Virus record (IMG/VR): IMGVR_UViG_3300012932_000063
DNA: 29,457 nucleotides
Source of the DNA: a virus
Strand: one strand, 5' to 3'
Part shown: in pieces, positions 3,225-29,457 of the stretch
Position numbering within the stretch: the stretch's first letter is position 1
Layout of the letters: the number at the start of each line of letters is the position of its first letter
Made by a program: the position numbers and the translations under genes
The notes under the pieces: model-generated
Databases searched by the model: none
Seen by the model: only the letters and a program-made list of their open reading frames with translations
Told to the model about the DNA's origin: nothing

Positions 3225-3253
3225 TTGACAAAAAATCCGAACTCTGATATAAT
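3225..3253 (+). promoter_or_regulatory. consensus sigma70 promoter
   Basis: TTGACA, 17 bp, TATAAT, with the extended TGn motif. Confidence 0.9.
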
Positions 3254-4827: not shown

Positions 4828-4900
4828 GGTCCCGTAGTTCAAAGGTTAGAGCACCTGTCTCATAAACAGGTAGTTGCAGGTTCGAGTCCTGCCGGGACCA
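4828..4900 (+). tRNA. tRNA with CAT anticodon, likely tRNA-Ile2 (lysidine) rather than elongator Met
   Basis: Acceptor GGTCCCG/CGGGACC, anticodon arm CCTGT-CTCATAA-ACAGG, T-loop TTCGAGT. C4:G69 and C5:G68 pairs are as in Ile2 tRNAs. No encoded CCA. Confidence 0.88.
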
Positions 4901-4954
4901 TTTCAAATTAATTAAAGGTAATCCTATGGATATTATATAGTGAGAATAGATTAA

Positions 4955-5026
4955 TGCAGGGTGATTCAGTGGTTGAATACCAGGCTCATAACCTGGGTTA
5001 GGTGGGTTCGATTCCCACCCCTGCAA
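4955..5026 (+). tRNA. tRNA-Met(CAT), initiator-like
   Basis: Acceptor TGCAGGG/CCCTGCA with a weak U1:A72 pair, anticodon arm CCAGG-CTCATAA-CCTGG, T-loop TTCGATT. Confidence 0.88.
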
Positions 5027-14220: not shown

Positions 14221-14667
14221 TCAATCAGAGTGGGTTCTTTGTATCATGTTTCTCAATCTTTCTATTTCTTTATTTTGAAGTTCTAATTGCGCATATATTT
14301 CACTAAGATAATGCCTTATATCGGTGTCTATGTAACTATCGTTTTTATCAGAGAATGGATCTTTGGCACCGTATATATGCCTGATTATTTTAATAAGATT
14401 TTCAAGATCCCCTTTCATATTTCTTCTGTAAATACTGATATTGGCAATCACATTAAAAATATTATTTGGATCTGTGTGCCCAAGTGTGCCTTTAGGTCCT
14501 ACAGGATCGCCTGCATGATTTTTTTCTGTATATTGCACAGGGAAAAATCTAACACCAATATCGCCTATACCGGCTTTGACACCTAGTGCCCCCAAAGGGG
14601 TTTCTTCACCAGGTTCGCCTTGAGTACCATCATGTCCTCGATCGCCTTTCGGTGTTTCAATAATCAT
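14221..14667 (-). CDS. protein with short degenerate collagen-like G-X-Y stretches and C-terminal coiled coil
   Basis: GDRGHDGTQGEPGEE and GPKGTLGHT. Confidence 0.6.
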   Translation of the reverse strand: MIIETPKGDRGHDGTQGEPGEETPLGALGVKAGIGDIGVRFFPVQYTEKNHAGDPVGPKGTLGHTDPNNIFNVIANISIYRRNMKGDLENLIKIIRHIYGAKDPFSDKNDSYIDTDIRHYLSEIYAQLELQNKEIERLRNMIQRTHSD

Positions 14668-14885
14668 GTATTATATCTCCATACTATACGGCCTTTTTCT
14701 AAATCATAAGGTGAAATTTCTATAGAAACTCTGTCACCAAGACATACCTTTATTTGTCTGGTTCTTAGTTTACCGCCTAAAGTACAATCTACTATATGTC
14801 CTTCAGCTGCATCTTCAAGTTCCACTAAGAAATTTGCACCTTTGTATTCTTTGATAATTTTGCCGTCTTTTAAAATTTTATGCAT
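14664..14885 (-). CDS. infA: translation initiation factor IF-1
   Basis: F.VEL...H.V.C.L.GK.R...IKV..GDRV.IE.SPYDL.KGRIVWR is the IF-1 signature. Confidence 0.93.
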   Translation of the reverse strand: MHKILKDGKIIKEYKGANFLVELEDAAEGHIVDCTLGGKLRTRQIKVCLGDRVSIEISPYDLEKGRIVWRYNT

Positions 14886-15211: not shown

Positions 15212-15406
15212 CTATATTTCTTGTGTTAAATATCTATAAATAGTTAGTGTTAATACTAATGATAAACCTATAATAACACTTGTCAAAATTTTGTTTTCAT
15301 GAAAACGTTCTATCATAAAAAGAATAATGCCGTAACATAGATAGGATATAAATAAACCGGCTAAACATGAAACTAAAAACATAAGAAATAAAATAAGAAA
15401 TTTCAT
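15212..15406 (-). CDS. small two-TM membrane protein (holin candidate)
   Basis: Two hydrophobic helices; two genes downstream of the lysozyme. Confidence 0.55.
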   Translation of the reverse strand: MKFLILFLMFLVSCLAGLFISYLCYGIILFMIERFHENKILTSVIIGLSLVLTLTIYRYLTQEI

Positions 15407-15419
15407 GTGCGCCCTCTAA

Positions 15420-15794
15420 TCATTCTTCCTCTTCCGCGGATTCACTATCTTCCTCTTTTTGTGCAGGTTGTGCTTGCTGCTGACGCTGTTGGGGCCGCTG
15501 AGCCTGTTGCGCCTGTTTCGGTTTTTGTTCTTCTTGTACTATCATCAAAGCGTTTACGCTTTCTATTTGGCCAATATAATTAGCAACGTTTTCTCTAATG
15601 TTTTCTTTGATGCTTTCTGGTAAATCATCATAAGAATTATTGGAGAAATTGATCCAGTCTGCTGCAGCGTTATGATCTATGAAAACACTACCATCTTTCC
15701 TTGTATGGAATCCTTGTGTGAATCTGCTTACCCATATAGACCATATTTTATGTTGGGCTTCGCATAATTCTTCAAACACTTCTGTATATGCCAT
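15420..15794 (-). CDS. hypothetical protein, RyR-domain-like, paralog of 16752-17051
   Basis: E.LCE.QHKIWS...DGSV.I...Y..L.E..K.NI; Gln/Glu-rich tail; start behind AAGAGG. Confidence 0.65.
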   Translation of the reverse strand: MAYTEVFEELCEAQHKIWSIWVSRFTQGFHTRKDGSVFIDHNAAADWINFSNNSYDDLPESIKENIRENVANYIGQIESVNALMIVQEEQKPKQAQQAQRPQQRQQQAQPAQKEEDSESAEEEE

Positions 15795-15810
15795 AATAAA
15801 CCTCTTTTTA

Positions 15811-16617
15811 TTAATTAGGCAATTCAAAATATTTGGCATCGCCAGTTTGAATTACCATTGCGTTTCTATAATATCGAGTTGAAAGTTCTTCGTTAGAAAC
15901 ATGCAGCTCTATTGCTGCTTCTTTCCATTCTCCAGCTTTTACATGATCAATAAACTTATGGAATCTTCTAAAACGTGTTAAGCCTAAATTAAATATAACA
16001 TCAATAATTGCTTCTCTACGTGGTTCAGTAATAGATTGCCAAGTATTACCAAAAACACTCATAGCTTCTTTAGTGGTGTTTTTTAAGTCGTCTGTTAATA
16101 ATAATTCAATATCATGTTCAGATAAAGGCGTATGAAATATCTGATTAGCTACGCCAAAATTTTTTATATAAATACGACCATTTTTGACTTCGGTAGAGGA
16201 TAAAATAGTTCTGACATCAGGTTCAGGTATGATAGAAAATAATTCATTAACAGAAATTCCGTTAGTGGATAAAGATCTACCTACACCTATTGTGACGGTT
16301 TGTTCATTATCAAGATAAGGTGTGGAACGCTTAGATTCGTCTCTTATAATTAATCTTGATAACCGAGAAAGCGGAGTGCCTGCATCTGATTCTATGGTAT
16401 CTATATGTTCTTTATGTGGTGATTCTGGCGGTATATCTGATTGCGATATAACCGAAGGTGAAGTTTGTTCGTTTTGTGTCTGTTGTTTTTTCTGTTCTAA
16501 CGTTTCCTGTATAAGGTTATATTCTTTTCTTATACTGAAATATACCACTGTTAAACCTATACATATTAGAATCAACAGGGCCACCACAACGTCCATAAAT
16601 GTTATTCTTCTAATCAT
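15811..16617 (-). CDS. T4-type (GH24) lysozyme with N-terminal transmembrane anchor
   Basis: E-x8-D-x5-T triad (DESKRSTPYLDNEQTVTIGVG), R..AIID..FNLG..R..F, W.EAA.E; N-terminal TM helix and linker. Confidence 0.85.
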   Translation of the reverse strand: MIRRITFMDVVVALLILICIGLTVVYFSIRKEYNLIQETLEQKKQQTQNEQTSPSVISQSDIPPESPHKEHIDTIESDAGTPLSRLSRLIIRDESKRSTPYLDNEQTVTIGVGRSLSTNGISVNELFSIIPEPDVRTILSSTEVKNGRIYIKNFGVANQIFHTPLSEHDIELLLTDDLKNTTKEAMSVFGNTWQSITEPRREAIIDVIFNLGLTRFRRFHKFIDHVKAGEWKEAAIELHVSNEELSTRYYRNAMVIQTGDAKYFELPN

Positions 16618-16651
16618 ATTTCACCTCTTTATGTTAAATCTTTGTGGTATA

Positions 16652-16726
16652 TCAGGGCGACTGGATTTGAACCAGCGACCTCGTGGACCCAAACCACGCA
16701 CTCTGGCCGGGCTGAGCTACGCCCTG
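16652..16726 (-). tRNA. tRNA-Pro(TGG)
   Basis: Acceptor CAGGGCG/CGCCCTG, anticodon arm CGTGG-TTTGGGT-CCACG, T-loop TTCAAAT. Confidence 0.93.
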
Positions 16727-16751
16727 ATATTGTTATCAGAAGAAAACGTTA

Positions 16752-17051
16752 TTAGGTCGTTTCTTGAACTGAAGATTCTTGATTATTTGATTCCTGAGAA
16801 ACCTGTTCTTCAGAAACCTGTTCTTTTTCTTGATCGTCCGGAGACAAATAACCCGAAACAGACGTCTGAATATTTTGCTTGGATTTTTCAGACAACTCTT
16901 TATAATCCATAGCAGCTAATTTTTTATACCTATCAACAGCGGATGGACTAATCAAAACACTACCATCCTCTCTAACTTTTTTCAACATACCAGATACACA
17001 ACGTGACCATATCTTATGTTGTATTTCACATAACTGTTCTAAATTAACCAT
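16752..17051 (-). CDS. hypothetical protein, RyR-domain-like, paralog of 15420-15794
   Basis: EQLCEIQHKIWS...EDGSVLI...YKELSEKSKQNI; RBS AAGGAG. Confidence 0.65.
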   Translation of the reverse strand: MVNLEQLCEIQHKIWSRCVSGMLKKVREDGSVLISPSAVDRYKKLAAMDYKELSEKSKQNIQTSVSGYLSPDDQEKEQVSEEQVSQESNNQESSVQETT

Positions 17052-17065
17052 AAAACAGAGTCTCC

Positions 17066-17914
17066 TTATTCATCATAATCGTCATCTGAGTAATCTTCAT
17101 CATCATAATTATCGTCAGAATCATCGTAGTCATCACCTGAATCGTCGTCGGAATAATCATCGCCAGAGTCATCATAGTCATCACCTGAATCGTCGTCGGA
17201 ATAATCATCGCCAGAGTCATCATAGTCATCACCTGAATCATCATAATTATCGTCATCTGAATCAGACCAATCATCGCCGGTATTATTATAAGCAGCAGAT
17301 GGATTGTTTATTGGCAATTTTCCGCGAATAACAGCAGCTTGAGCTTGCGCAAATTCCATGTTTATGCTGTTACAAGTATCTAAGAACTTACATAAAGTGT
17401 CTACGATTCGCATGAGGGCTTCAGGTGGTTCCTCGCGGATCATTTTCACTTCCCATTTAACAGTGGCACGGTAGTCTGTTTTGCGTTTCTTGTCTTCTGA
17501 CATACCTACAGAACCATGAACTTTTACAGTGGCACTGATAGGTCCAAAACCATATTTAGCACTACCCTCAAATCCACCTGAAGATTCCACATGTTTAGCT
17601 TCTTCTGTGCTGGTGCTAACATCCATAGAACCTGACACAGTTGCTTCGTGCATAAGAAACGGTGAGAGTTTACGAGATAAAACACGTGGCAAGTTAGCAC
17701 TATATCTCAAACCTTCATCCACACCTAAGATAGCCATTGCGGTATCTATGTCAAAATTAGGATGTTGAAAAGCACGATCAATAGTTGCTTCTGCAAGGTC
17801 TTCCAGGTGCATATTGCCAGCTGCCACTGCTTCACAAAACGCCATTATCTGGTCAGACATTAATCCGCTATAATTCGCTTCTCGTGCTACATTATCTGAT
17901 CCGTAATCAGCCAT
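17066..17914 (-). CDS. DUF2589-like protein with Asp-rich repetitive C-terminal tail
   Basis: LAEAT.D, GS.K.GFGPISA.V...GSV......R.TD.RA, EPPE.L.RIVD.L; tail of DDSGDDY repeats. Confidence 0.65.
   Translation of the reverse strand: MADYGSDNVAREANYSGLMSDQIMAFCEAVAAGNMHLEDLAEATIDRAFQHPNFDIDTAMAILGVDEGLRYSANLPRVLSRKLSPFLMHEATVSGSMDVSTSTEEAKHVESSGGFEGSAKYGFGPISATVKVHGSVGMSEDKKRKTDYRATVKWEVKMIREEPPEALMRIVDTLCKFLDTCNSINMEFAQAQAAVIRGKLPINNPSAAYNNTGDDWSDSDDDNYDDSGDDYDDSGDDYSDDDSGDDYDDSGDDYSDDDSGDDYDDSDDNYDDEDYSDDDYDE
17127..17239. repeat. exact 48-bp tandem repeat, about 2.3 copies, encoding DDSGDDYSDDDSGDDY
   Basis: Units start at 17127, 17175 and 17223. Confidence 0.9.
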
Positions 17915-17942
17915 AACAACTCTCCTTTATCGGTTAAAATAA

Positions 17943-18479
17943 TTAATTGTTAGTAGTATCTTCTTCGTTGTTTTCTTCTTCACTATTCTCAGTGCTGTTT
18001 TCTGTCATGGTAGGTCGCGATGCTTGTGTAACCCTATTTTGCAATTGTTTATGCAACTCTTGATTTGCTTCTTCTCTAATTAGTTCTAAGCCTTCCACTG
18101 GGTCCGTTCGCACCATGGTTAATTTCACTTTAAGATTTGAATGTGACTTGAATAATCCTACTTTTTTCAATGATATTTGCACATCAGGATTATCTGCGTC
18201 GCCAGTGTTTTCAAAACTCATGGGCGTATCAAACTCAAATTCAAGTGATTCAGGTACCATAGTATCTAAAACCCTTCTTAAAATCACAGGAACCGTTATA
18301 ACCGGTGTATTATCAAAAAGCTTAATCTTATCCGATTTGAACATGTATACACCATCGCCATCTGGATCCTCAAAATATTCCATAAATTTCTCATGTGCAG
18401 CGACAGCCATGCTATGTGCTAATTCAATAGGAATTTGACCAAGTGTATCCGCAATAAACTTTTTAAGGTTTATAGACAT
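17943..18479 (-). CDS. second DUF2589-like protein
   Basis: YF...K..KI.L....ITVPVI.......LEFEF...LKVKLTM...DPVEGLELI; Asn/Glu-rich tail. Confidence 0.55.
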   Translation of the reverse strand: MSINLKKFIADTLGQIPIELAHSMAVAAHEKFMEYFEDPDGDGVYMFKSDKIKLFDNTPVITVPVILRRVLDTMVPESLEFEFDTPMSFENTGDADNPDVQISLKKVGLFKSHSNLKVKLTMVRTDPVEGLELIREEANQELHKQLQNRVTQASRPTMTENSTENSEEENNEEDTTNN

Positions 18480-18494
18480 AGATAACCCCCTCTA

Positions 18495-18743
18495 TTAACT
18501 ATGTTTCATTCTTCTTTTTGATTTAGATTTGTATTTGGCAATACGTTCTAAAGCTTGTAACAAATTAGGTAGTGCTTGCAGCACATGCCAGATTGCAAGA
18601 ATCAATATGCTATGATGCAGTTTCATGAATAAATCATCAAACACAACAGTTAATAACAGAACAAGACCAATAGAACTTTGAAGATAAGGATTTCTTATGA
18701 TTCTTCGTATATGACGATGGTGTTTAAACAGGTGGTGTACCAT
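18495..18743 (-). CDS. small two-TM membrane protein with His residues
   Basis: NPYL...IGLVLLLT...HHSILILAIWHVL.ALP; start taken at MVHH (uncertain). Confidence 0.6.
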   Translation of the reverse strand: MVHHLFKHHRHIRRIIRNPYLQSSIGLVLLLTVVFDDLFMKLHHSILILAIWHVLQALPNLLQALERIAKYKSKSKRRMKHS

Positions 18744-19089
18744 AGGTGTTTTCATCTTCATTACCTTTAAGACAACCAAGAATGAAAATGCTTATGAAAA
18801 AACCTACTATTGGAATATAATTTAATGCAGTGAAAACACCTTGTTTGTCTAAATCATGCCAACGTTTAGTGTTTAGGGCCACATGCATCCAAATATAACA
18901 CACACCAATCAGTGTGCCTATAGTAAGATTATGAATGCTGAATATACCCCAAGACAGCTCATGCGGGATAGAAAAATGGAATATGCTACCTAAAACAACA
19001 GAGATAAAAACGGCAGTTAAATTACCTAACCACCAATATTTACGATTTATTCTACCTTCTAAACTAAATAACAATTTACATATATTCAT
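18724..19089 (-). CDS. DUF805 inner membrane protein
   Basis: FSLEGRINRKYWW, KRWHDLDK.G, IPIVG, KG....N.YG.PP. Confidence 0.88.
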   Translation of the reverse strand: MNICKLLFSLEGRINRKYWWLGNLTAVFISVVLGSIFHFSIPHELSWGIFSIHNLTIGTLIGVCYIWMHVALNTKRWHDLDKQGVFTALNYIPIVGFFISIFILGCLKGNEDENTYGTPPV

Positions 19090-19095
19090 AATAGA

Positions 19096-19455
19096 TTACC
19101 TGTGATGCTGAGAATGACCATGGGTTCCATGACCTTCTAACTTGTGAAGTTCTTCTCTAACAGCGTGTTGTGCAGCTTCAACTAATATCAAACACTTTTT
19201 TGAATCAGAAACACGATGTGCTTTATGAGTGTTTTCTTCAGCTTTTTCTATTGCCAAAAGCAGCTCATGCCCACCATGGCCTAATTCATGTATCAATCTC
19301 TTAAAATCAACGCCAGACGTTAATTTTCTAAGATCATTTGCAACCTTATGTATTTCTTCTATGCTACGTGCTTGGTTTAAATCTTGATGAGATTCTTCTA
19401 AAACTTTAGAAACATGATGTAAACTCTTAATATTATTTTCGTGCGGATGAACCAT
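19096..19455 (-). CDS. His-rich helical protein
   Basis: 18 His in 119 aa by hand count; amphipathic helices; LEGHGTHGHSQHHR tail; RBS AGGAG. Confidence 0.8.
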   Translation of the reverse strand: MVHPHENNIKSLHHVSKVLEESHQDLNQARSIEEIHKVANDLRKLTSGVDFKRLIHELGHGGHELLLAIEKAEENTHKAHRVSDSKKCLILVEAAQHAVREELHKLEGHGTHGHSQHHR

Positions 19456-19493
19456 AATTTAATTCTCCTGGTTTATGATGTTGCACTTCTTAA

Positions 19494-19736
19494 TCATTTA
19501 CGATGTCTAACAGCATTTTTTCTATGCAGATGTGAATGACTGCTATGTCCAGCATGATCAGAATGACCTTCTAATTCAAGAGTAACTTCCGATAATTTTT
19601 TCAAAGTTTCTTCTATCAACCCTAAACTGGGTTTGAGAATAGAAATGTCCTTTTTATGTTTAATAGCTTGTTCTATATCACCATGCAAATCTTCTAAACC
19701 CGCTTTGATAGCATGTAGTTCTCTTGGTGCTGACAT
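19494..19736 (-). CDS. His-rich helical-hairpin protein
   Basis: Two amphipathic helices plus LEGHSDHAGHSSHSHLH tail; RBS AGGAG. Confidence 0.78.
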   Translation of the reverse strand: MSAPRELHAIKAGLEDLHGDIEQAIKHKKDISILKPSLGLIEETLKKLSEVTLELEGHSDHAGHSSHSHLHRKNAVRHRK

Positions 19737-19747
19737 AATAATATCTC

Positions 19748-20017
19748 CTATGTTAAGTATCTCTTAACTGCTAAAATTAATATTGTGGAATATATAATGT
19801 TAATCACAATATTCAAAATATAAGCTCTGATTATTTTCCCTTGGATCTTAGACGTTTCAGATTCTATAAATTCATCAATTTTATCTTCAAGGGTTTGTAC
19901 TTCCTTGTTGATAACTTTTTCAACACCTTCTAATAACTTGTCGGTCAAAATATTGGCTTCCACCACTATAGGTGTTAATACCATTAATATTAATATACAG
20001 GATAAAATACGTGTCAT
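19748..20017 (-). CDS. small protein with signal/TM segment, coiled coil and C-terminal TM
   Basis: Hydrophobic termini around an acidic heptad region; RBS AAGGAG. Confidence 0.7.
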   Translation of the reverse strand: MTRILSCILILMVLTPIVVEANILTDKLLEGVEKVINKEVQTLEDKIDEFIESETSKIQGKIIRAYILNIVINIIYSTILILAVKRYLT

Positions 20018-20032
20018 TTTGTATCTCCTTTT

Positions 20033-20740
20033 CTAAAATTCTATTCTTAAGGCATGTTTCCAATTCCAATGCCAGTGTTGTCTCTCTAAAAATTCAATGT
20101 CAGTTCTATAATTGATAACGCCTGAAACTTCAAAATAAATCTTGTCCATAAAAAGAAAACGGCCTATGGGTATGCTCCACACAGGCAGTAGGCGTATTTC
20201 ATAATCTCCAAAATCATGTTCTGGTAAATATTCACAGAAGATAGAAAATTTAGAAATTCTTAACTCAACATGTGCTTGTGGACCATATTCCAAAGAAGTG
20301 TCTACATCTATATCAGATGATAATTCTTCTTGTGATAACCAAGTTCCAACACCACCGTTGATTTCAAAATTTTCAGAATCAATGATGTCTACATGCAGAT
20401 AAGCACCACCATGCCACAAAGATTCAAGAGAGTGCAAAGTGTCTTTATCAAAACGAGCATATCCTCGTAGACCTAATCTGTTTTTATGATAACCACCTTC
20501 TATTCTTGAACGGACAAAATATGCGCTTTGAGCATTAATTTCATGTAATTGTCTTAACTCACCACCTATATATCCATTAACAAAATTTAAAGGATAACTA
20601 GCAGATGCCGCAAAAGTATGATAATCTTTCGTACCATCTGTCCGCAACGAAAAGTTTAATCCATCACCAACATAAAATTCTGCTGCAATAGGCATTGACA
20701 GCAAAGTGATTAAACAACAACAACTTAAAACCAATTTCAT
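20033..20740 (-). CDS. outer-membrane beta-barrel protein (DUF481-like)
   Basis: ATG 20740 behind AAGGAG; signal peptide MKLVLSCCCLITLLSMPIAA; alternating amphipathic strands; C-terminal ALRIEF beta-signal. Confidence 0.7.
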   Translation of the reverse strand: MKLVLSCCCLITLLSMPIAAEFYVGDGLNFSLRTDGTKDYHTFAASASYPLNFVNGYIGGELRQLHEINAQSAYFVRSRIEGGYHKNRLGLRGYARFDKDTLHSLESLWHGGAYLHVDIIDSENFEINGGVGTWLSQEELSSDIDVDTSLEYGPQAHVELRISKFSIFCEYLPEHDFGDYEIRLLPVWSIPIGRFLFMDKIYFEVSGVINYRTDIEFLERQHWHWNWKHALRIEF

Positions 20741-20750
20741 AATTATCTCC

Positions 20751-21371
20751 TTAGTTATGACCGTGTCCATGACCACCATGACCACTATGATCATCATGGT
20801 GATGGCTATGATCTCCATGGCTACCACTGTGTCCACTATCATGACCGCCATGGTGACCAGCAGGTGCACCAGCATGACCTCCATGTCCATGGTGACCGTG
20901 TCCACCATGTGTGCCACCTTGATGACCTAAATGTGCACCAACATGACTTCCACCATGACTTCCACCATGTGCACTTTCATGTGAACCATCATGATCGTTA
21001 GATTTGTCAATACAATTTTTTAATATGCGTTTTACCTCAATTAGTGCGAGTGAAATAAGTTCAAATCTGTGTTGATAGTCACTGTCTAATTTGCTCAGAT
21101 CAGCTAATGCTTTTGCTATATGATCTAAGATTTGATGAATTTCATGTTCTTCCACTTCTATAGAATCATAAACAATGTGTCCGTGGTGTTCAACATGATG
21201 GACAGGATGTTGTAACTCTGTAACAATATTAGCGGCTTGTGATATATTTCCTTTTATAGCACGCATAATGTGAGGAGTACTATCCATAGAAAGGCATCTT
21301 TGTCGAGCTTCTTCTATTTTATGCAGTGCTTTTTCCATCTCCTCTTGTTTTAAGATAATTTTGTGTGGCAT
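20751..21371 (-). CDS. His-rich protein: two helical hairpins and a long Gly/His/Ser tail
   Basis: Start MPHKIIL behind AAGGA; tail of HGGSHGGSH/HGGHGHHGHGGH repeats. Confidence 0.8.
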   Translation of the reverse strand: MPHKIILKQEEMEKALHKIEEARQRCLSMDSTPHIMRAIKGNISQAANIVTELQHPVHHVEHHGHIVYDSIEVEEHEIHQILDHIAKALADLSKLDSDYQHRFELISLALIEVKRILKNCIDKSNDHDGSHESAHGGSHGGSHVGAHLGHQGGTHGGHGHHGHGGHAGAPAGHHGGHDSGHSGSHGDHSHHHDDHSGHGGHGHGHN

Positions 21372-21390
21372 GAAAATATCCTTTTCACAA

Positions 21391-21915
21391 TCATTGATGC
21401 GAACTATGCTTTTTCCTGTGTGGCACCGATGGACCATCTTCACTATAGTGGAGATGATGTTTGGTTTGACTAAGATGCGGATGCATTTTGTGTAGAATTC
21501 TATGTGCTTTTTCTATATCCTGGTGAATAACACCAACATGCGCAGCCACTTTGCGTCCCATATCTGCTAGTATTTTCAAACCTTTTTCTACAAGTTCATA
21601 TATCTCATAAAATTTATCATCCTCTAATTGAGTTAAAGGATTATGAGTGTGTTTTATACCAAGTTCTTGATTTGTGGGTTCATGACCTGGAGAGTGTTTA
21701 TGTGATTTGGCACCATGATGCGCTTGATGGGGGTGATGATCCCTAACTATTTCTACATATTGAGGATATATCTTTTTAAGTAGAGAAATAGCATGTCCCA
21801 CATCTCTTATTAACTCCTTAAATCTTGGTGTAGGATGTTCAATAGATTTAAGGCGTTCTAAAGCACGAGAAAGAATATGTATAACCTCATCTATTTGCAG
21901 CTGATTAACTTTCAC
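21391..21915 (-). CDS. His-rich protein with two helical hairpins
   Basis: TPRFKELIRDVGHAISLL and GVIHQDIEKAHRIL units joined by His-rich linkers. Confidence 0.8.
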   Translation of the reverse strand: MKVNQLQIDEVIHILSRALERLKSIEHPTPRFKELIRDVGHAISLLKKIYPQYVEIVRDHHPHQAHHGAKSHKHSPGHEPTNQELGIKHTHNPLTQLEDDKFYEIYELVEKGLKILADMGRKVAAHVGVIHQDIEKAHRILHKMHPHLSQTKHHLHYSEDGPSVPHRKKHSSHQ

Positions 21916-22223
21916 TATAATATTCCTTCAGAAAATGAAGATACTCTTAAAGCGGATATTTCTCTGTATAATCCTTTGTAGTTCTTCAATTTATAGATTG
22001 TATCACCTGACAGGTTTTCACCATTAAACATGGTTACTTTACCTTTTTCGTCGTATGTAAAATGGACAGATGCGCCCACCATCATCCCAAAAGGTACATG
22101 TATTTCTTCAATAACATCATTAGGAAAATCGCCATGATGATTTCCTTGTGATGCTTTATAATCTCCTGGTCCCAATTCTTTGCTATGGCGACCATTATCC
22201 CATACTATTTTTACCTTAGACAT
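21915..22223 (-). CDS. beta/gamma-crystallin-like (Greek key) protein
   Basis: LGPGDY...PND.I..I.VP.G..V....H..Y...and ISALRV match the two-motif crystallin pattern. Confidence 0.55.
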   Translation of the reverse strand: MSKVKIVWDNGRHSKELGPGDYKASQGNHHGDFPNDVIEEIHVPFGMMVGASVHFTYDEKGKVTMFNGENLSGDTIYKLKNYKGLYREISALRVSSFSEGIL

Positions 22224-22232
22224 AATATCTCC

Positions 22233-22787
22233 TTAACTATGATGCCGACGCTTCTTCTTAGGAATAGGCGGTGGTGTTTCACTACCAGAATGATGAGAAT
22301 GATGACCAGGTGAATGACCTGAATGATCAGCATGCTCATCCACAATTTCTATATGAATCAGATCGTCTAATAATGCTATAAGATGATGGATATCTGAGAT
22401 AAGACGTTCTACCTCAGGCGTTTTGTTATGATGCTTCAAAGCATCATTAGCAAGATTCACCTGTTTATCTGCATCTCTTAGGGCTTTCACACTTACACTT
22501 GAATGATGACCACCATGTGTAGGTTCAAGATGTTCTAAAATGCCTTGTGCGACAGCAAGATGCTGTGAAATGACATTAATTTTATCTAATTTATGAGCAT
22601 GCGATGCTAATTTCTCCGCTTTGTCCACGGCTCTCTGGCATGTGGCAAAAGCCTCACTCATCTGTTCTGAATTGACAAGCTTGTGAGAACTATCTGGGCT
22701 ATGTGAAGAATGATGAGCATCCTTATGCGCATGTGTAGAACGATAAGGTGCAGGCTTATGAGGTGGTTTACGTTTACCGTGTGCCAT
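22233..22787 (-). CDS. His-rich protein with two helical hairpins
   Basis: 29 His in 184 aa by hand count; first gene after the promoter; RBS AAGGAG. Confidence 0.82.
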   Translation of the reverse strand: MAHGKRKPPHKPAPYRSTHAHKDAHHSSHSPDSSHKLVNSEQMSEAFATCQRAVDKAEKLASHAHKLDKINVISQHLAVAQGILEHLEPTHGGHHSSVSVKALRDADKQVNLANDALKHHNKTPEVERLISDIHHLIALLDDLIHIEIVDEHADHSGHSPGHHSHHSGSETPPPIPKKKRRHHS

Positions 22788-22820
22788 ACTTTTTCTCCTT
22801 TTCCTTAAATTATAATAAAC

Positions 22821-22849
22821 AATTTACCACAAAAACTTCATAACGTCAA
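22821..22849 (-). promoter_or_regulatory. sigma70-type promoter for the His-rich cluster
   Basis: TTGACG (22849-22844), 17 bp, TAAATT (22826-22821) with TGn; a second TATAAT at 22814-22809. Confidence 0.65.
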
Positions 22850-22856
22850 GGTTTTT

Positions 22857-23690
22857 TTAGAGTTTAAATCCAATATCTGTAAAAAATTGTACCATATCAG
22901 TGTCCGTGATTATATTATCTAATACAGATACAAATTGAGGTGTTGAAAGAGGTGTATACGGATGAACACTATCAAACACTTTGCCAAAAGTACCAGGCCA
23001 CGTATCTTCAATATATTTAACAACCGTATATGAGTATCTATAGCACCATTGTGTTAAATCCGCTTGCGCATAAATACCTTGACCTTCTGTCCAATTTTGA
23101 ATAGCATTAACACCTTGTTTATCTTTACGTATTTTCTCTGTCAAAGAGGCAAACGCAGGATGTGCAGGCACCTCTGTATACATGTTTTCATTTAATACTG
23201 CAAAACCTTCATCTACCCATACTGGTAAATGAAACGGTGCTATAAAACTATGAGTTAATTCATGTGCCCTTACAAATTCTTTATCAAACATCACATAAGG
23301 AAAATGCATACTTAATTTAGAAATCATACCGTTCTGATAATCAACATCGGTATAAGCAATATTTGTAGAACCTCTTAATAATTTATGTATAGTTACATGT
23401 ATTTGATGATCAGGTTTAAAATGAAACCTGTCATAAAAATTCTGAAATAATTTGTCCATGTTCGTTAAAGCATTTTCTTTATAATTGTCTCGCTTTTGTT
23501 GCGTGTCAAATAATTTATCAGATTTAATATCTTCAGCATAATCTAAACTAAAATGCACACTATTAACATTATCTAATTTAACATCATCCATAATAGGTTT
23601 GCCTTCATCACCACAACCATCTAAAATCGTAATGCCAATAAATATGCAAATAGGTATTATTAAAATTACCAAACAACTTAAGTTTTTCAT
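22857..23690 (-). CDS. lipoprotein zinc metallopeptidase (peptidase MA/gluzincin-like)
   Basis: Signal ending LDGC; AHELTH...PVWVDEGFA; Y.YSY.VVKYI. Start MKNLS behind GAGG. Confidence 0.8.
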   Translation of the reverse strand: MKNLSCLVILIIPICIFIGITILDGCGDEGKPIMDDVKLDNVNSVHFSLDYAEDIKSDKLFDTQQKRDNYKENALTNMDKLFQNFYDRFHFKPDHQIHVTIHKLLRGSTNIAYTDVDYQNGMISKLSMHFPYVMFDKEFVRAHELTHSFIAPFHLPVWVDEGFAVLNENMYTEVPAHPAFASLTEKIRKDKQGVNAIQNWTEGQGIYAQADLTQWCYRYSYTVVKYIEDTWPGTFGKVFDSVHPYTPLSTPQFVSVLDNIITDTDMVQFFTDIGFKL

Positions 23691-23703
23691 AAATAGCCTC
23701 ATA

Positions 23704-26357: not shown

Positions 26358-27245
26358 CTATTGTCCAAAAATCATCGCCGCTTTGACTATAGAGGCACCT
26401 GCGTTTTCACCGCCTGGTGACACCACAAAACCTCTACCTTTTCTTCTAATATTAGCATTAGATTCATCATAAGTATCTGTAGGATCAGGTGCTTCCTGTA
26501 TAAATCCTTTAGGTATAGTAGGATGCACAGCTGAATTTTCACTGCCTATAATGCGTTTGCCAACGGTCAACGGGGTGCTAGTGCCATTGATAAATTTTAT
26601 ATCCCACCCTTCAACAGCAATCTTTAATTTACCATAAGATAACCCTAATATAGAACCTATAACTTCCTCATTTTCACCAGCTAATCGAACCGATATATCA
26701 TTGATATTGCTGGTTTCATCTGCAAATGTTACGGCTCTATTAATATAAACTTTATCTAATTGGCCTTTAGTGAGATATAATGTGGTATCCTCAGTAACAG
26801 TAGCCGCGGTGAAAGCGGTAACTTTTTTGACTCTGTTGTCTAAAATATCATAAAAGAAATAGGTTTTAGTGCTGTCATAAGTGTTATCTTCTAACCATTC
26901 TCCAGCGGCTGCAGGTGTGTTTACGGATTCTGAACCCGTTGCACCATGAACTTTACCTAACCACACATTAGCGGCACCAAAAATTATAGCACTAGTAGCA
27001 GGTATAGATACCCAATTTGAACCATCATATCTATAAAACCCTTGAGTTTTTCTTCTGTTACCTATTTTAAAATAAACAGGATTCGTACCATCTGTTTCTA
27101 CAAGATTTTCAACAGATTCCCTGTAAACACCTTTCCAAGCACCTGCAACATCGTCATCGTCGATTATTTCTGAAGTAATTGAATGCTCTACAGGTATTTT
27201 TCGACCTATGGAAGCGGAAATTATCTTTTCTTGAAAATATCCCAT
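26358..27245 (-). CDS. virion-type protein, paralog 3 of a tandem trio (capsid decoration-like C-terminal domain)
   Basis: Shares VWLGK..GA.GS, YINRAVTF, VRLA..IGSILG, DIKFIN, SIVK...FG with its neighbours. Confidence 0.65.
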   Translation of the reverse strand: MGYFQEKIISASIGRKIPVEHSITSEIIDDDDVAGAWKGVYRESVENLVETDGTNPVYFKIGNRRKTQGFYRYDGSNWVSIPATSAIIFGAANVWLGKVHGATGSESVNTPAAAGEWLEDNTYDSTKTYFFYDILDNRVKKVTAFTAATVTEDTTLYLTKGQLDKVYINRAVTFADETSNINDISVRLAGENEEVIGSILGLSYGKLKIAVEGWDIKFINGTSTPLTVGKRIIGSENSAVHPTIPKGFIQEAPDPTDTYDESNANIRRKGRGFVVSPGGENAGASIVKAAMIFGQ

Positions 27246-27249
27246 ATTT

Positions 27250-28146
27250 TTACCATCCTCCGAAAATTAAGCTCACTTTAACTATACTTTGACCAGCGAC
27301 TGATGCTTTAGAAGAATCACTATAGGTTATATGACCTCTGGCATTACTTCTTAATAATTCATTACCAGAAATTAAAGCATAATCAGGTGCCTCCTGTATA
27401 TAACCAGGATTATTATTTACGTTTTTACCTATAATTTTCCTTCCAACAACCAATGGCGCAGTGGTACCATTAATGAATTTTATATCCCATCCGTCTACAG
27501 CTATCTGGAGTTTGTTATAAGTGTAGCCCAAAATAGAACCCACAACAATGCTGTCATCATGTGCCAATCTCACTTTTGGATTAGTGATAGTAAAATCTTC
27601 ATCAAATGTTACAGCTTTATTAATATAAGATTCCGCCAAATTACCCTTGACGATTTGTATTTGACCAGGCGCAACGTATTTAATAACTTCTTCTACTTCA
27701 TCTGATTCAGAATTGTAAAAATAATATACATTGCTGCTGCTATAATTATTACTGTTAAAATAAGTTAGCAAAGAAGAATATGATGTCACTTGAGCAGAAC
27801 CAGTGGCACCATTGTTTTTACCAAGCCACACCACTGTTCTAGGTGGTATACCAGGATCCGTAGATACTTTAGTAGTATCAAATACGTTAACATCAGTCGG
27901 GGTAATATCAACCCAAGAGGTAGTGTTCCTGTATCTAAAAATATGACTGGTTGAGTTAAAATGTAATTTTGTTCTGATTGGTGGTGAACCGGGTAAATCT
28001 GCAAAATCCACATCGTCCAAGTCTCTGGTAGAAACACCAGCATAATCATCAGCGCCTACATCAGCTGAAGTTATTGTTTCTCTTTCTAAGATAGGATTCG
28101 CACCACCTGGTACTCCAGAAAGAATTTGTTGTTGAAAATATGCCAT
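27250..28146 (-). CDS. virion-type protein, paralog 2 of the trio
   Basis: Same conserved blocks. Confidence 0.65.
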   Translation of the reverse strand: MAYFQQQILSGVPGGANPILERETITSADVGADDYAGVSTRDLDDVDFADLPGSPPIRTKLHFNSTSHIFRYRNTTSWVDITPTDVNVFDTTKVSTDPGIPPRTVVWLGKNNGATGSAQVTSYSSLLTYFNSNNYSSSNVYYFYNSESDEVEEVIKYVAPGQIQIVKGNLAESYINKAVTFDEDFTITNPKVRLAHDDSIVVGSILGYTYNKLQIAVDGWDIKFINGTTAPLVVGRKIIGKNVNNNPGYIQEAPDYALISGNELLRSNARGHITYSDSSKASVAGQSIVKVSLIFGGW

Positions 28147-28149
28147 ATT

Positions 28150-28998
28150 TTACCAAGCTCCAAATTTCATAACAGATTTGACAATGCCGATACCGGATTG
28201 TCCATCTAAACCAGAATGAATAATTTTGCCCCTTGATTTAGCCAAATTAGATTCAATGGTCCCCGCTTGCTGCACATAACCACCTTTGTTATCATAAGTA
28301 TGCCCTATTATTTTTGAACCAATGGGTATAGAATAATCTGTGGCGTTAATAAATTTAATATTATCGCCAGTGACATGTATTTGCAGGCGTTTATTGCTAT
28401 AACCCAAAATAGAACCTATCACCATTTCATTATCACCAGCTAATCTAACAACAGGATTATTAATATTAAACGGATAACCATCAAAAGTGACAGCTCTGTT
28501 AATATATTCTTTGTCCAATTTACCATTCACAATAGAGATTTTGAAAACCATGTCGCTATCATAAGAAGTCACTTTCTTGATGTTACCTACACCATCATGC
28601 AAATTAGTGTTATCATAATAATAGAACGTCTGACTGGTATCCAAAGAGGTAGAGGCAAGAAATTCTAAAAGACTAGTTAAATCATTCACTTTTTCTGAAC
28701 CAAGGGCACCATCGTTTTTACCAAGCCACACACCATTAGAACCCAAAATATTCTGATGTGTGGGTAAAAGGATCTCCCACCTCCTATTAGAATCTGTCCA
28801 ACCTTTAAAAATCTCATTAGTGCGATCAAAATATATAGGATCAGTATCATCGTTTGGTACATTACCTTCTTCACTAAAATCAAAATCGCCTTCCCAATCA
28901 CCGGGTATATCTGCGTCTACTAACGGTGCAGATGTAACACTACCAATTGTGCCACCAGGTATAGCACTAAGTATTTGTTGCGGATCATAATAATTCAT
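28150..28998 (-). CDS. virion-type protein, paralog 1 of the trio
   Basis: Same conserved blocks; start set at MNYYDPQQILS to align with MAYFQQQILS. Confidence 0.65.
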   Translation of the reverse strand: MNYYDPQQILSAIPGGTIGSVTSAPLVDADIPGDWEGDFDFSEEGNVPNDDTDPIYFDRTNEIFKGWTDSNRRWEILLPTHQNILGSNGVWLGKNDGALGSEKVNDLTSLLEFLASTSLDTSQTFYYYDNTNLHDGVGNIKKVTSYDSDMVFKISIVNGKLDKEYINRAVTFDGYPFNINNPVVRLAGDNEMVIGSILGYSNKRLQIHVTGDNIKFINATDYSIPIGSKIIGHTYDNKGGYVQQAGTIESNLAKSRGKIIHSGLDGQSGIGIVKSVMKFGAW

Positions 28999-29050
28999 CA
29001 GCATCTTCAGATTTGGAAACCCCAATCTTTAGATTGGAGAGGAAAATCTG
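28998..29050 (-). mobile_element. IS200/IS605-type element end hairpin
   Basis: TTCCTCTCCAATC-TAAA-GATTGGGGTTTCC flanked by CAGATTT/AAATCTG, overlapping the IsrB/IscB stop codon. Confidence 0.7.
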
Positions 29051-29457
29051 CTCCAGTGGTAATTAAAGTTAAGGCGTGTAAGAATCTTAAAGGATTCTCT
29101 TTTTGCCGTTGTTGTTAGCCTTTTATTTTCAAGGCTATAGAGAGAAAACAAACCTTTCGCATTTACACCAGCCAAACGTGTTATACCGTACTTAACATGT
29201 TTTATCAAAGAGTTTTTGATAAGTCCATGTCCTAATACCGTGCCACCATATTCAGTGCGTTTACCTCCAGTCCCTGGCTTTTCTTCTTTGTGAAGTTTGC
29301 GCCTATGTATATTAATAGGCGATACACATAGTAAATCTTTGTTTTCCACATTAGAAGAAGAAGAACCTCCCACAACAGAATACGCCAAACACCAGCTATC
29401 TACACAATGAGCATCAAAGGTTTCTGCCGTCTTATCCCTGGCCTTCTTAAGTCCAAG
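29029..29457 (-). CDS. C-terminal part of an RRXRR-family OMEGA nuclease (IsrB/IscB-like), 5' truncated by window
   Basis: Frame is open to the window edge: LGLKKARDKTAETFDAHCVDSWCLA (RuvC-III H..D), RRKLH, GGKR..YGGT, KH.KYG. Confidence 0.8.
   Translation of the reverse strand, partial: LGLKKARDKTAETFDAHCVDSWCLAYSVVGGSSSSNVENKDLLCVSPINIHRRKLHKEEKPGTGGKRTEYGGTVLGHGLIKNSLIKHVKYGITRLAGVNAKGLFSLYSLENKRLTTTAKRESFKILTRLNFNYHWSRFSSPI

Follow-up and report, generated by a model that had tools for sequence, protein, structure and literature searches.

Conserved genes around a DUF2589 pair, a DUF481-type barrel and a lysozyme, with two histidine-rich blocks, in a phage that probably infects Poribacteria

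The DNA analysed here, a stretch of 29,457 nucleotides from the virus record IMGVR_UViG_3300012932_000063 of IMG/VR (the window), is part of a 95,061-bp contig. It is phage DNA with 35% GC and encodes a thymidylate kinase, a DNA methyltransferase, a RusA-like protein, a lysozyme and three tRNAs. The subject of this report is a run of 12 minus-strand ORFs, numbered g1 to g12 in reading order, together with the genes on either side of it (Table 1). The ORFs are all co-oriented, extend from 22787 to 17066 and are separated by gaps of -20 to 38 bp, which confirmed the tight packing described in an earlier reading of the letters alone (the sequence-only reading). That reading had taken the 12 genes for a single system of novel composition and had listed no internal terminator. 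The novelty of the composition is agreed on here; the single system was not supported by comparison with a related phage (see below). A terminator scan of the minus strand returned two weak terminator-like sites, both within g9, and none beyond g12. Since no such site follows g12, the gene run continues through g13, the tRNA-Pro gene and the lysozyme gene (15811-16617), an extension that had been missed. The gene order after g12 is g13, tRNA-Pro, lysozyme, a paralog of g13 and a 64-aa membrane protein, all on the minus strand. The host of the phage is probably a member of the Poribacteria, because the closest homologs that g11, g12 and the lysozyme have in a genome were found on a Candidatus Poribacteria contig.

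Table 1. Features of the gene run and its flanks, in window coordinates; core, member of the conserved gene set; orphan, gene without relatives found; blocks 1 and 2, the two groups described in the text.
Feature	Coordinates	Strand	Description
Zn-metallopeptidase-like protein	22857..23702	-	Exported; HELTH motif, lipobox-like LDGC; first core gene, outside the 12-gene block
Promoter candidate	22821..22849	-	Sigma70-type extended -10, TTGACG-17-TAAATT with TG; heads histidine-rich block 1
g1	22233..22787	-	184 aa, 15.8% His; pair of amphipathic helical hairpins whose ends are His-rich, and a basic C-terminus; block 1, orphan
g2	21915..22223	-	102 aa; domain probably of beta/gamma-crystallin type, its calcium motifs degenerate; block 1, orphan
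g3	21391..21915	-	174 aa, 14.4% His; pair of helical hairpins with a linker rich in His; block 1, orphan
g4	20751..21371	-	206 aa, 19.4% His; pair of helical hairpins plus a His/Gly tail of 80 residues; block 1, orphan
g5	20033..20740	-	235 aa, signal peptide; DUF481/YdiY-type outer-membrane beta-barrel; core
g6	19748..20017	-	89 aa; hydrophobic N-terminus, acidic helix, C-terminal membrane helix
g7	19494..19736	-	80 aa, 12.5% His; single helical hairpin and a His tail; block 2, orphan
g8	19096..19455	-	119 aa, 15.1% His; pair of helical hairpins, His tail, ExxH motif present five times; block 2, orphan
g9	18724..19089	-	DUF805 inner-membrane protein; Pfam E 7.5e-21, 75.1 bits; core
g10	18495..18743	-	82 aa membrane protein, pI 11.4, 11% His; 49% identical in G001; core
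g11	17943..18479	-	DUF2589 'B' paralog, short hairpin; core
g12	17066..17914	-	DUF2589 'A'; long amphipathic beta-hairpin (residues 109-138), Asp-rich tandem-repeat tail; core
g13	16752..17051	-	99 aa; paralog of 15420-15839
tRNA-Pro(TGG)	16651..16727	-	Between g13 and lysozyme
Phage lysozyme	15811..16617	-	Membrane helix at the N-terminus (residues 7-25); closes the core, outside the 12-gene block
64-aa membrane protein	15212..15406	-	Two helices; second holin candidate

Scanning of IMG/VR with close homologs of g12 yielded one locus, located in the complete 63,966-bp phage G001, and scans with the lysozyme and with the peptidase returned G001 again and nothing else. The gene order in G001 is peptidase, barrel, DUF805, g10, an 86-aa gene, g11, g12 and lysozyme, seven of which are common to the window at 41-58% identity. 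The genes g1-g4, g7, g8 and g13 were not found anywhere in the G001 genome (tblastn at E<=0.5, for the histidine-rich genes also a search with a profile of their hairpins), g6 gave only a 20-residue match (E 0.34), and among the 276 G001 ORFs of at least 50 aa that were screened none of at least 100 aa reached 8% His. The peptidase and barrel genes are 12 bp apart in G001 and 2.1 kb apart in the window, where the promoter candidate and g1-g4 lie between them; the barrel and DUF805 genes are 9 bp apart in G001 and 0.94 kb apart in the window, where g6-g8 lie between them. The histidine-rich genes form two blocks that were gained in the window phage or lost in G001, and gain is favoured because these genes are absent from all other DUF2589 loci read. 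The promoter candidate has no counterpart in G001, because the matching gap there is only 12 bp long, and belongs to block 1. As the conserved core in G001 starts at the peptidase and ends at the lysozyme, the conserved unit extends past both ends of the 12-gene block: G001 keeps g5 and g9-g12 plus peptidase and lysozyme. For recurrence of the gene set, on which the sequence-only reading had proposed a neighbourhood search, the outcome was divided; the core genes recurred together, and none of the other DUF2589 pairs examined had a histidine-rich gene next to it.

G001 and the window have only nine distinct proteins in common, eight of which are encoded in this segment, as for one exchanged block, and the small flanking genes vary between loci. 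Both observations fit a late-gene hot spot of unrelated accessory genes with no joint function, where the order common to G001 would reflect descent of the segment only. We give this explanation little weight, as barrels of three groups and DUF2589 pairs that are 22-43% identical recur in like settings in different elements.

The genes g11 and g12 had been described as a DUF2589 pair. For g12 this was borne out by Pfam (DUF2589, PF11655, E 9.5e-6, 26.5 bits against a cut-off of 23), and 100 of the 111 members of the g12 family matched DUF2589 at E<=0.01. No Pfam match was obtained for g11, whose homologs remained below the cut-off (E 0.009 and 0.019); this protein, which is without the long hairpin and is 41-42% identical in the loci L001 and L002, was joined to the g12 family by hhalign (probability 88.7, E 2.6e-6). 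Complex prediction for g12 with g11 scored 0.27 beside a mark of 0.32. A profile search with g12 gave 200 relatives at E<=0.001. An alternation of hydrophobic and polar residues around a G-[WFY]-G-P turn could be observed at residues 109-138 of g12 throughout 111 homologs; this hairpin lies between Ser/Thr-rich stretches and is followed by the near-invariant residues R144, D147 and E165. The g12 model, built from 111 sequences, comprises a helix, two strands, a long strand, the hairpin (104-146, pLDDT <50), a long strand and a helix. The better of two PDB matches of the g12 family profile at E<=10 fell on the hairpin region of Vip1, the pore subunit of a binary toxin (E 0.0059). Judged from its pattern, the hairpin would fit insertion into a membrane, and it would equally fit a sheet-forming filament. 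With beta-hairpin pore formers of the protective-antigen/Vip1 and aerolysin type, g12 shares Ser/Thr-rich strands flanking an alternating hairpin, the G-aromatic-G-P turn and the weak Vip1 profile match. Unlike these proteins it is about 200 aa long and cytoplasmic, has long helices at its termini, carries neither a receptor-binding nor a calcium domain and gave no fold match. The Asp tail of g12, a 48-bp repeat in 2.8 copies at 95%, is a recent repeat and not a family feature, and a tail with at least 40% D/E was present in only 8 of 110 g12 homologs. Searches with g12 gave no relative in IMG/VR, whether with the protein alone or with alignment A1, nor in JGI metagenome contigs or cultured phages, and P0026 gave none in phages, plasmids and IMG/VR; a search with a canonical DUF2589 gave one 4-kb phage record, which carries no annotation. 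With g12 as a DUF2589 member and g11 as its remote paralog, the window resembles in its tandem layout other DUF2589 genes such as AF0414-AF0417 of Archaeoglobus fulgidus, for which the pertinent passage of PMC3949148 gives no function. The window differs from this tandem in its divergent subfamily, its B-A order, the absence of a zinc-ribbon partner and the presence of a barrel and a lysozyme nearby.

The signal-peptide beta-barrel seen by the sequence-only reading in g5 proved to be of the DUF481/YdiY type, the Atlas match to DUF481 reaching a feature score of 0.96 and a model TM of 0.86, which meets the bar for a name. No Pfam match was obtained for g5 itself; its distant homolog in L016 passes Pfam DUF481. 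A passage of PMC4827864 lists DUF481 (PF04338, TCDB 1.B.75) as a family of putative pores with 12 strands. Signal peptide, size, C-terminal Phe and predicted fold are common to g5 and the DUF481/YdiY barrels. It is set apart from the host DUF481 copies by an identity of only about 20%, by a long branch of its own with the G001 copy, to which it is 42% identical, and by its lysis-region context. The lysozyme matched Pfam Phage_lysozyme above the cut-off (E 2.2e-6) and a PHROG endolysin (E 1.9e-9), and is 43-51% identical in L001 and L002. The metallopeptidase-like protein matched Pfam Peptidase_MA_2 below the cut-off (E 6e-4) and is 58% identical to the product of the gene directly upstream of the barrel in G001.

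Membership of g9 in DUF805 had been proposed and was borne out, since the protein passes the PF05656 cut-off; it is 50% identical in G001. The very basic membrane protein g10 is a candidate holin or membrane disruptor, and its His-rich N-terminus is present only in this phage. A paralog of g13 is encoded at 15420-15839 (40% identity over 68 aa, E 3e-14), and the two genes flank the tRNA-Pro and lysozyme genes. A weak g13 homolog with a His cluster was found directly upstream of the lysozyme gene in G124 (L042 1847-2122), and a role of the g13-type paralogs as lysis regulators is possible. In the 64-aa protein, about 24 mostly hydrophobic residues separate the lipobox from the C-terminal helix. 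No holin family was matched by g6, g9, g10 or the 64-aa protein (Pfam, PHROG and NCBIfam; NCBIfam only for the 64-aa protein). A lipobox scan of the minus strand of the window detected only the peptidase and the 64-aa protein, and no typical spanin pair. A role in anti-phage defence was considered and rejected, PADLOC having returned a single weak match among 13 proteins (g9, E 0.003).

DUF2589 A genes were detected with the g12 profile in 8 of 151 Poribacteria-phylum genomes. A same-strand DUF481 barrel lay within 14 kb in five of the eight, a lysozyme or TIGR02594-like gene within 15 kb in three, and one or the other in seven; counted by element, about four of five carry a barrel or hydrolase near DUF2589 A. 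A barrel within 2.5 kb of the lysozyme was present in 5 of 16 lysozyme-positive genomes. The locus L002, a prophage-like contig of a Poribacteria metagenome-assembled genome with tape-measure and terminase-like genes, holds g11, g12, two small genes and a lysozyme. In G087 the pair is accompanied by a lipoprotein-gene array, small membrane genes, lysozyme and barrel. Loci of the same type, with lysozyme and barrel and no g12 match, were found in G036, G050, G053 and G126, with G126 retaining a short remnant; this G087-group locus is a degenerate prophage or a domesticated lysis locus in at least five Poribacteria genomes. G094 has a nuclease, the pair, membrane genes and a TIGR02594-like gene below the cut-off. 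The occurrence of the pair, the barrel and the lysozyme together in Poribacteria elements is new here, as are the histidine-rich orphan blocks. The 15 best-scoring host DUF481 copies had no DUF2589 or lysozyme within 1.5 kb and formed a separate group in the tree. In that tree, of 25 rows, the module-linked barrels fell into three deeply separated groups with long branches, and a test of phage plus cassette barrels as one clade gave a p-AU of 0.42.

Several further features of these loci were observed. In the G087 group (L012 437-9800 and L060-L063), lipoprotein paralogs on the plus strand are interleaved with metallopeptidase-like paralogs on the minus strand, interrupting or replacing the DUF2589 pair, and this array adjoins a cassette of holin-like, lysozyme and barrel genes and sugar-modifying genes. 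The chromosomal element of L013-L016, conserved in four genomes, consists of repeated 440-aa genes, a secreted protein, the DUF2589 pair, a lipoprotein, a nuclease-like anchored protein and the barrel, which is followed by epimerase and methyltransferase-like genes. Directly upstream of the barrel or DUF2589 region, different Poribacteria elements have a Cys-rich, zinc-finger-like gene of about 220 aa (L013 6910-7590, L015 12056-12706, L016 12474-13160 and L002 7349-8014). Two small helical genes near the lysozyme, at L001 12352-12594 and L002 11001-11246, are weakly similar to each other (z 2.8) and do not occur in the window.

We tentatively favour, at somewhat less than even chances, a conserved gene set that breaches the host envelope at lysis without spanins, into which two blocks of histidine-rich genes, whose products would bind transition metals, were probably inserted. 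The membrane-anchored lysozyme would be exported, held in the inner membrane and cut the wall, with g10, g9 or the 64-aa protein as a holin-type trigger. The DUF2589 proteins A and B would co-assemble, A contributing its hairpin to a beta-barrel pore, and this pore would perform the membrane step that other phages give to spanins; the DUF481 barrel would be its outer-membrane partner or channel. The histidine-rich hairpins, which have no signal peptide, would be cytoplasmic and expressed from a promoter of their own along with the genes downstream. They would chelate Zn, Ni or Cu through flexible His tails, as a metal sink dispensable for the core. About 15% of phages are without spanins and use other outer-membrane disruptors, as stated in a passage of bioRxiv 10.1101/515445, which also describes the spanin-less lysis cassette of phiKT with its disruptin gp28. 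The window resembles holin-endolysin-spanin cassettes and that of phiKT in having a lysozyme and small membrane genes in a late co-oriented run without a typical spanin, and in its small size, positive charge and hydrophobicity g10 resembles a disruptin or holin. It differs from phiKT in the additional DUF2589 pair, DUF481 barrel, DUF805 protein and exported peptidase; g10, with 82 aa and a membrane helix, has no demonstrated relation to gp28. On the question of how spanin-less phages breach the outer membrane, the locus offers as candidates the DUF2589 pair, with its pore-type hairpin, and the DUF481 barrel, which are seen together with lysozyme in phages of a major uncultured phylum of sponge symbionts.

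A number of observations weigh against the spanin-less reading. Archaeoglobus has neither peptidoglycan nor an outer membrane. DUF2589 is reported from this genus too in a passage of PMC3949148, and the family is not lysis-specific. A fold of a pore former was not recovered for g12, Foldseek giving no match at E<=0.001 and VIA a best Z of 5.2, to coiled coils. Neither g11 nor g12 has a signal peptide, so that access to the outer membrane would need prior lysis steps. The choice between insertion and loss of the histidine-rich blocks rests on a single close relative, and g6 may belong to the core; it is weakly similar to a coiled-coil/transmembrane gene behind the barrel in G013 and G133 (z 6-7, from shuffles that ignore the clustering of membrane helices). 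The spanin scan covered the minus strand of the window, 29,457 nt of the 95,061-bp contig. The independent elements in Poribacteria number about four (G002; G087 with G036/G050/G053/G126; G022/G133/G085/G013; G094). In G022, G133, G085 and G013 the pair lies 3-3.5 kb from the barrel with no lysozyme in the 20 kb read, and G085 and G013 contain only a fragment of DUF2589 A. In G142 a canonical DUF2589 pair has a plain chromosomal setting with no barrel or hydrolase, and some DUF481 barrel, mostly a housekeeping copy, is present in 88 of the 151 genomes.

The arrangement in the G022 group, barrel and DUF2589 without lysozyme and then sugar-modifying genes, is what would be expected if the core (barrel, DUF805, exported peptidase and DUF2589 as a pore or filament) were a module for host-envelope remodelling or superinfection exclusion beside a lysis gene, with the histidine-rich genes as further accessories. 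The match of the DUF805 protein to a PHROG 'moron' membrane protein points the same way, as does an ordinary envelope role of DUF481, the loss of which altered growth with fusidic acid in Pseudoalteromonas according to a passage of bioRxiv 10.1101/2024.12.11.627208. Such a module is a serious though unlikely contender, since the pair lies zero to two genes from the lysozyme in three unrelated phages or prophages (the window, L001 and L002), and in the G087 group a holin-like gene precedes an adjacent barrel and lysozyme.

The five histidine-rich proteins claimed by the sequence-only reading were confirmed, with 12.5-19.4% His against a background of 2.1% in the 37 other ORFs of the window (144 of 6902 residues; binomial P 7e-6 to 2e-26). 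The proteins g1, g3, g4, g7 and g8 are composed of amphipathic helix-loop-helix units, each about 50 residues long, and the helical moment exceeded that of shuffles at p<0.05 in 13 of 18 half-units. Histidine occupies 37 of 449 positions inside the hairpin units (8%) and 85 of 314 outside them (27%); there are no signal peptides and no Cys clusters. That the five are paralogs, as had been proposed, was supported only faintly, the best domain match being that of g1 to g3 (E 2.5e-5 within 14 proteins) and 8 of 36 pairs of hairpin units reaching p<0.03 with shuffles that do not keep the heptad pattern. No match to g1 or to the hairpin profile was obtained in the 151 Poribacteria-phylum genomes, a search with g3 among 5.8 billion proteins gave 16 candidates with g3 itself as the sole true match, and no relative of g4 was found in IMG/VR; the homolog searches were word-seeded and miss distant relatives, and g2, g7 and g8 had no search of their own in large protein sets. 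Against the PDB the hairpin profile matched only generic and designed helical bundles, and it did not match the 80-aa and 81-aa helical genes near the L001 and L002 lysozymes or the 91-aa gene of G124. A literature search for histidine-rich phage proteins turned up only reviews. Five histidine-rich helical orphans in one phage are unusual, and they may represent a new small metal-binding scaffold, so far known from one genome.

By composition, the histidine-rich proteins likely chelate transition metals, most simply as Zn, Ni or Cu sinks, and here the earlier suggestion that His tails suit Ni, Zn and Cu and switch charge near pH 6 is agreed with. Flexible tails rich in His and Gly, without Cys clusters, are common to these proteins and to Helicobacter Hpn and the tails of SlyD and HypB, which we take to be metal stores or chaperone tails. 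Unlike the latter, to which they have no sequence relation, the phage tails sit on novel amphipathic helical hairpins and occur in five copies in one phage. The computed net charge shifts from a range of -11 to +4 at pH 7.4 to one of +9 to +24 at pH 5.5, each protein gaining 9-31 positive charges, so that the proteins may also act as a pH switch on acidification. This charge gain, the amphipathic hairpin repeats, the Vip1-like hairpin, the histidine gained by g10 in this phage and a probable host in sponges would suit a pH-triggered assembly of the histidine-rich hairpins with the DUF2589 pair, resembling an R-body or a pore toxin, after engulfment by a sponge cell. This is rather improbable, as no RebB or toxin family was matched, other DUF2589 loci read are without histidine-rich genes, and g11 and g12 carry neither an export signal nor a receptor-binding domain. 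A combined version, in which DUF2589 A and B form a two-component beta-pore that with the DUF481 barrel replaces spanins in Poribacteria lysis, and the five histidine-rich hairpins serve as an acid-triggered polycation switch arming that pore in sponge phagosomes, is improbable. R-body Reb proteins (PMC3583457, PMC13689365) are likewise several small helical paralogs in one gene run, with a possible pH response and a symbiont setting; the proteins here gave no match to RebB (PF11747) and are rich in histidine instead of Reb-like, and their genes are not a conserved cluster. Identity with R-bodies was rejected, no Reb match having been found in Pfam (E<=1, 12 proteins) or NCBIfam (E<=0.1) and the cluster not being conserved.

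The crystallin-like nature of g2 was weakly supported: six of nine weak PDB matches (E 0.68-1.2), over residues 11-51, were beta/gamma-crystallins, there was no Pfam match, and no homologs were found in the five genomes or records examined. The single-sequence model is all-beta (pLDDT 45.6), with no Foldseek match at E<=0.001, and g2 is probably crystallin-like. The calcium motif of beta/gamma-crystallins, which we take to be N/D-N/D-x-I-S/T-S, is not present at the aligned positions, which read NDVIEE and YREISA. The calcium role proposed for the Asp tail and the crystallin domain was therefore not borne out, the tail being recent and rare in the family and the motifs degenerate. The tight packing behind one promoter candidate, the extreme His content and the histidines of the barrel (11 in g5, 13 in its homolog) would suit a single metal capture and storage system of all 12 genes, with a barrel porin, a permease, His stores, and Asp tail and crystallin for calcium. 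We regard such a system as very improbable, since histidine-rich genes are lacking where the barrel, membrane and DUF2589 genes are conserved, no transporter family was matched, and the two calcium features fail as stated.

The promoter at 22849-22821, which had been placed at the head of the gene run, is present as a site and is plausible from its motif; a general promoter scan of the window gave 50 sites against 45.2 expected and could not single it out. A strict pattern, composed after this site had been seen, gave three matches against 0.47 expected, two of the three in intergenic gaps. The other two strict extended -10 matches are at 3225-3253 on the plus strand and at 4698-4668 on the minus strand, the latter antisense inside the RusA-like gene. 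Elsewhere in the window, two tRNA-Met(CAT) genes are located at 4828-5026. Three tandem, similar genes of 291-298 aa at 26358-29025 (minus strand), with their C-terminal part in common and no Pfam or PHROG match, are likely tail-fibre or receptor-binding paralogs. The fragment at 29029-29457 (minus strand), the C-terminal part of an ORF, resembles by eye what we take to be IS200/IS605-family (RRXRR/IscB-like) proteins, and the gene at 14664-14885 (minus strand) resembles, again by eye, a phage-encoded translation initiation factor IF-1.

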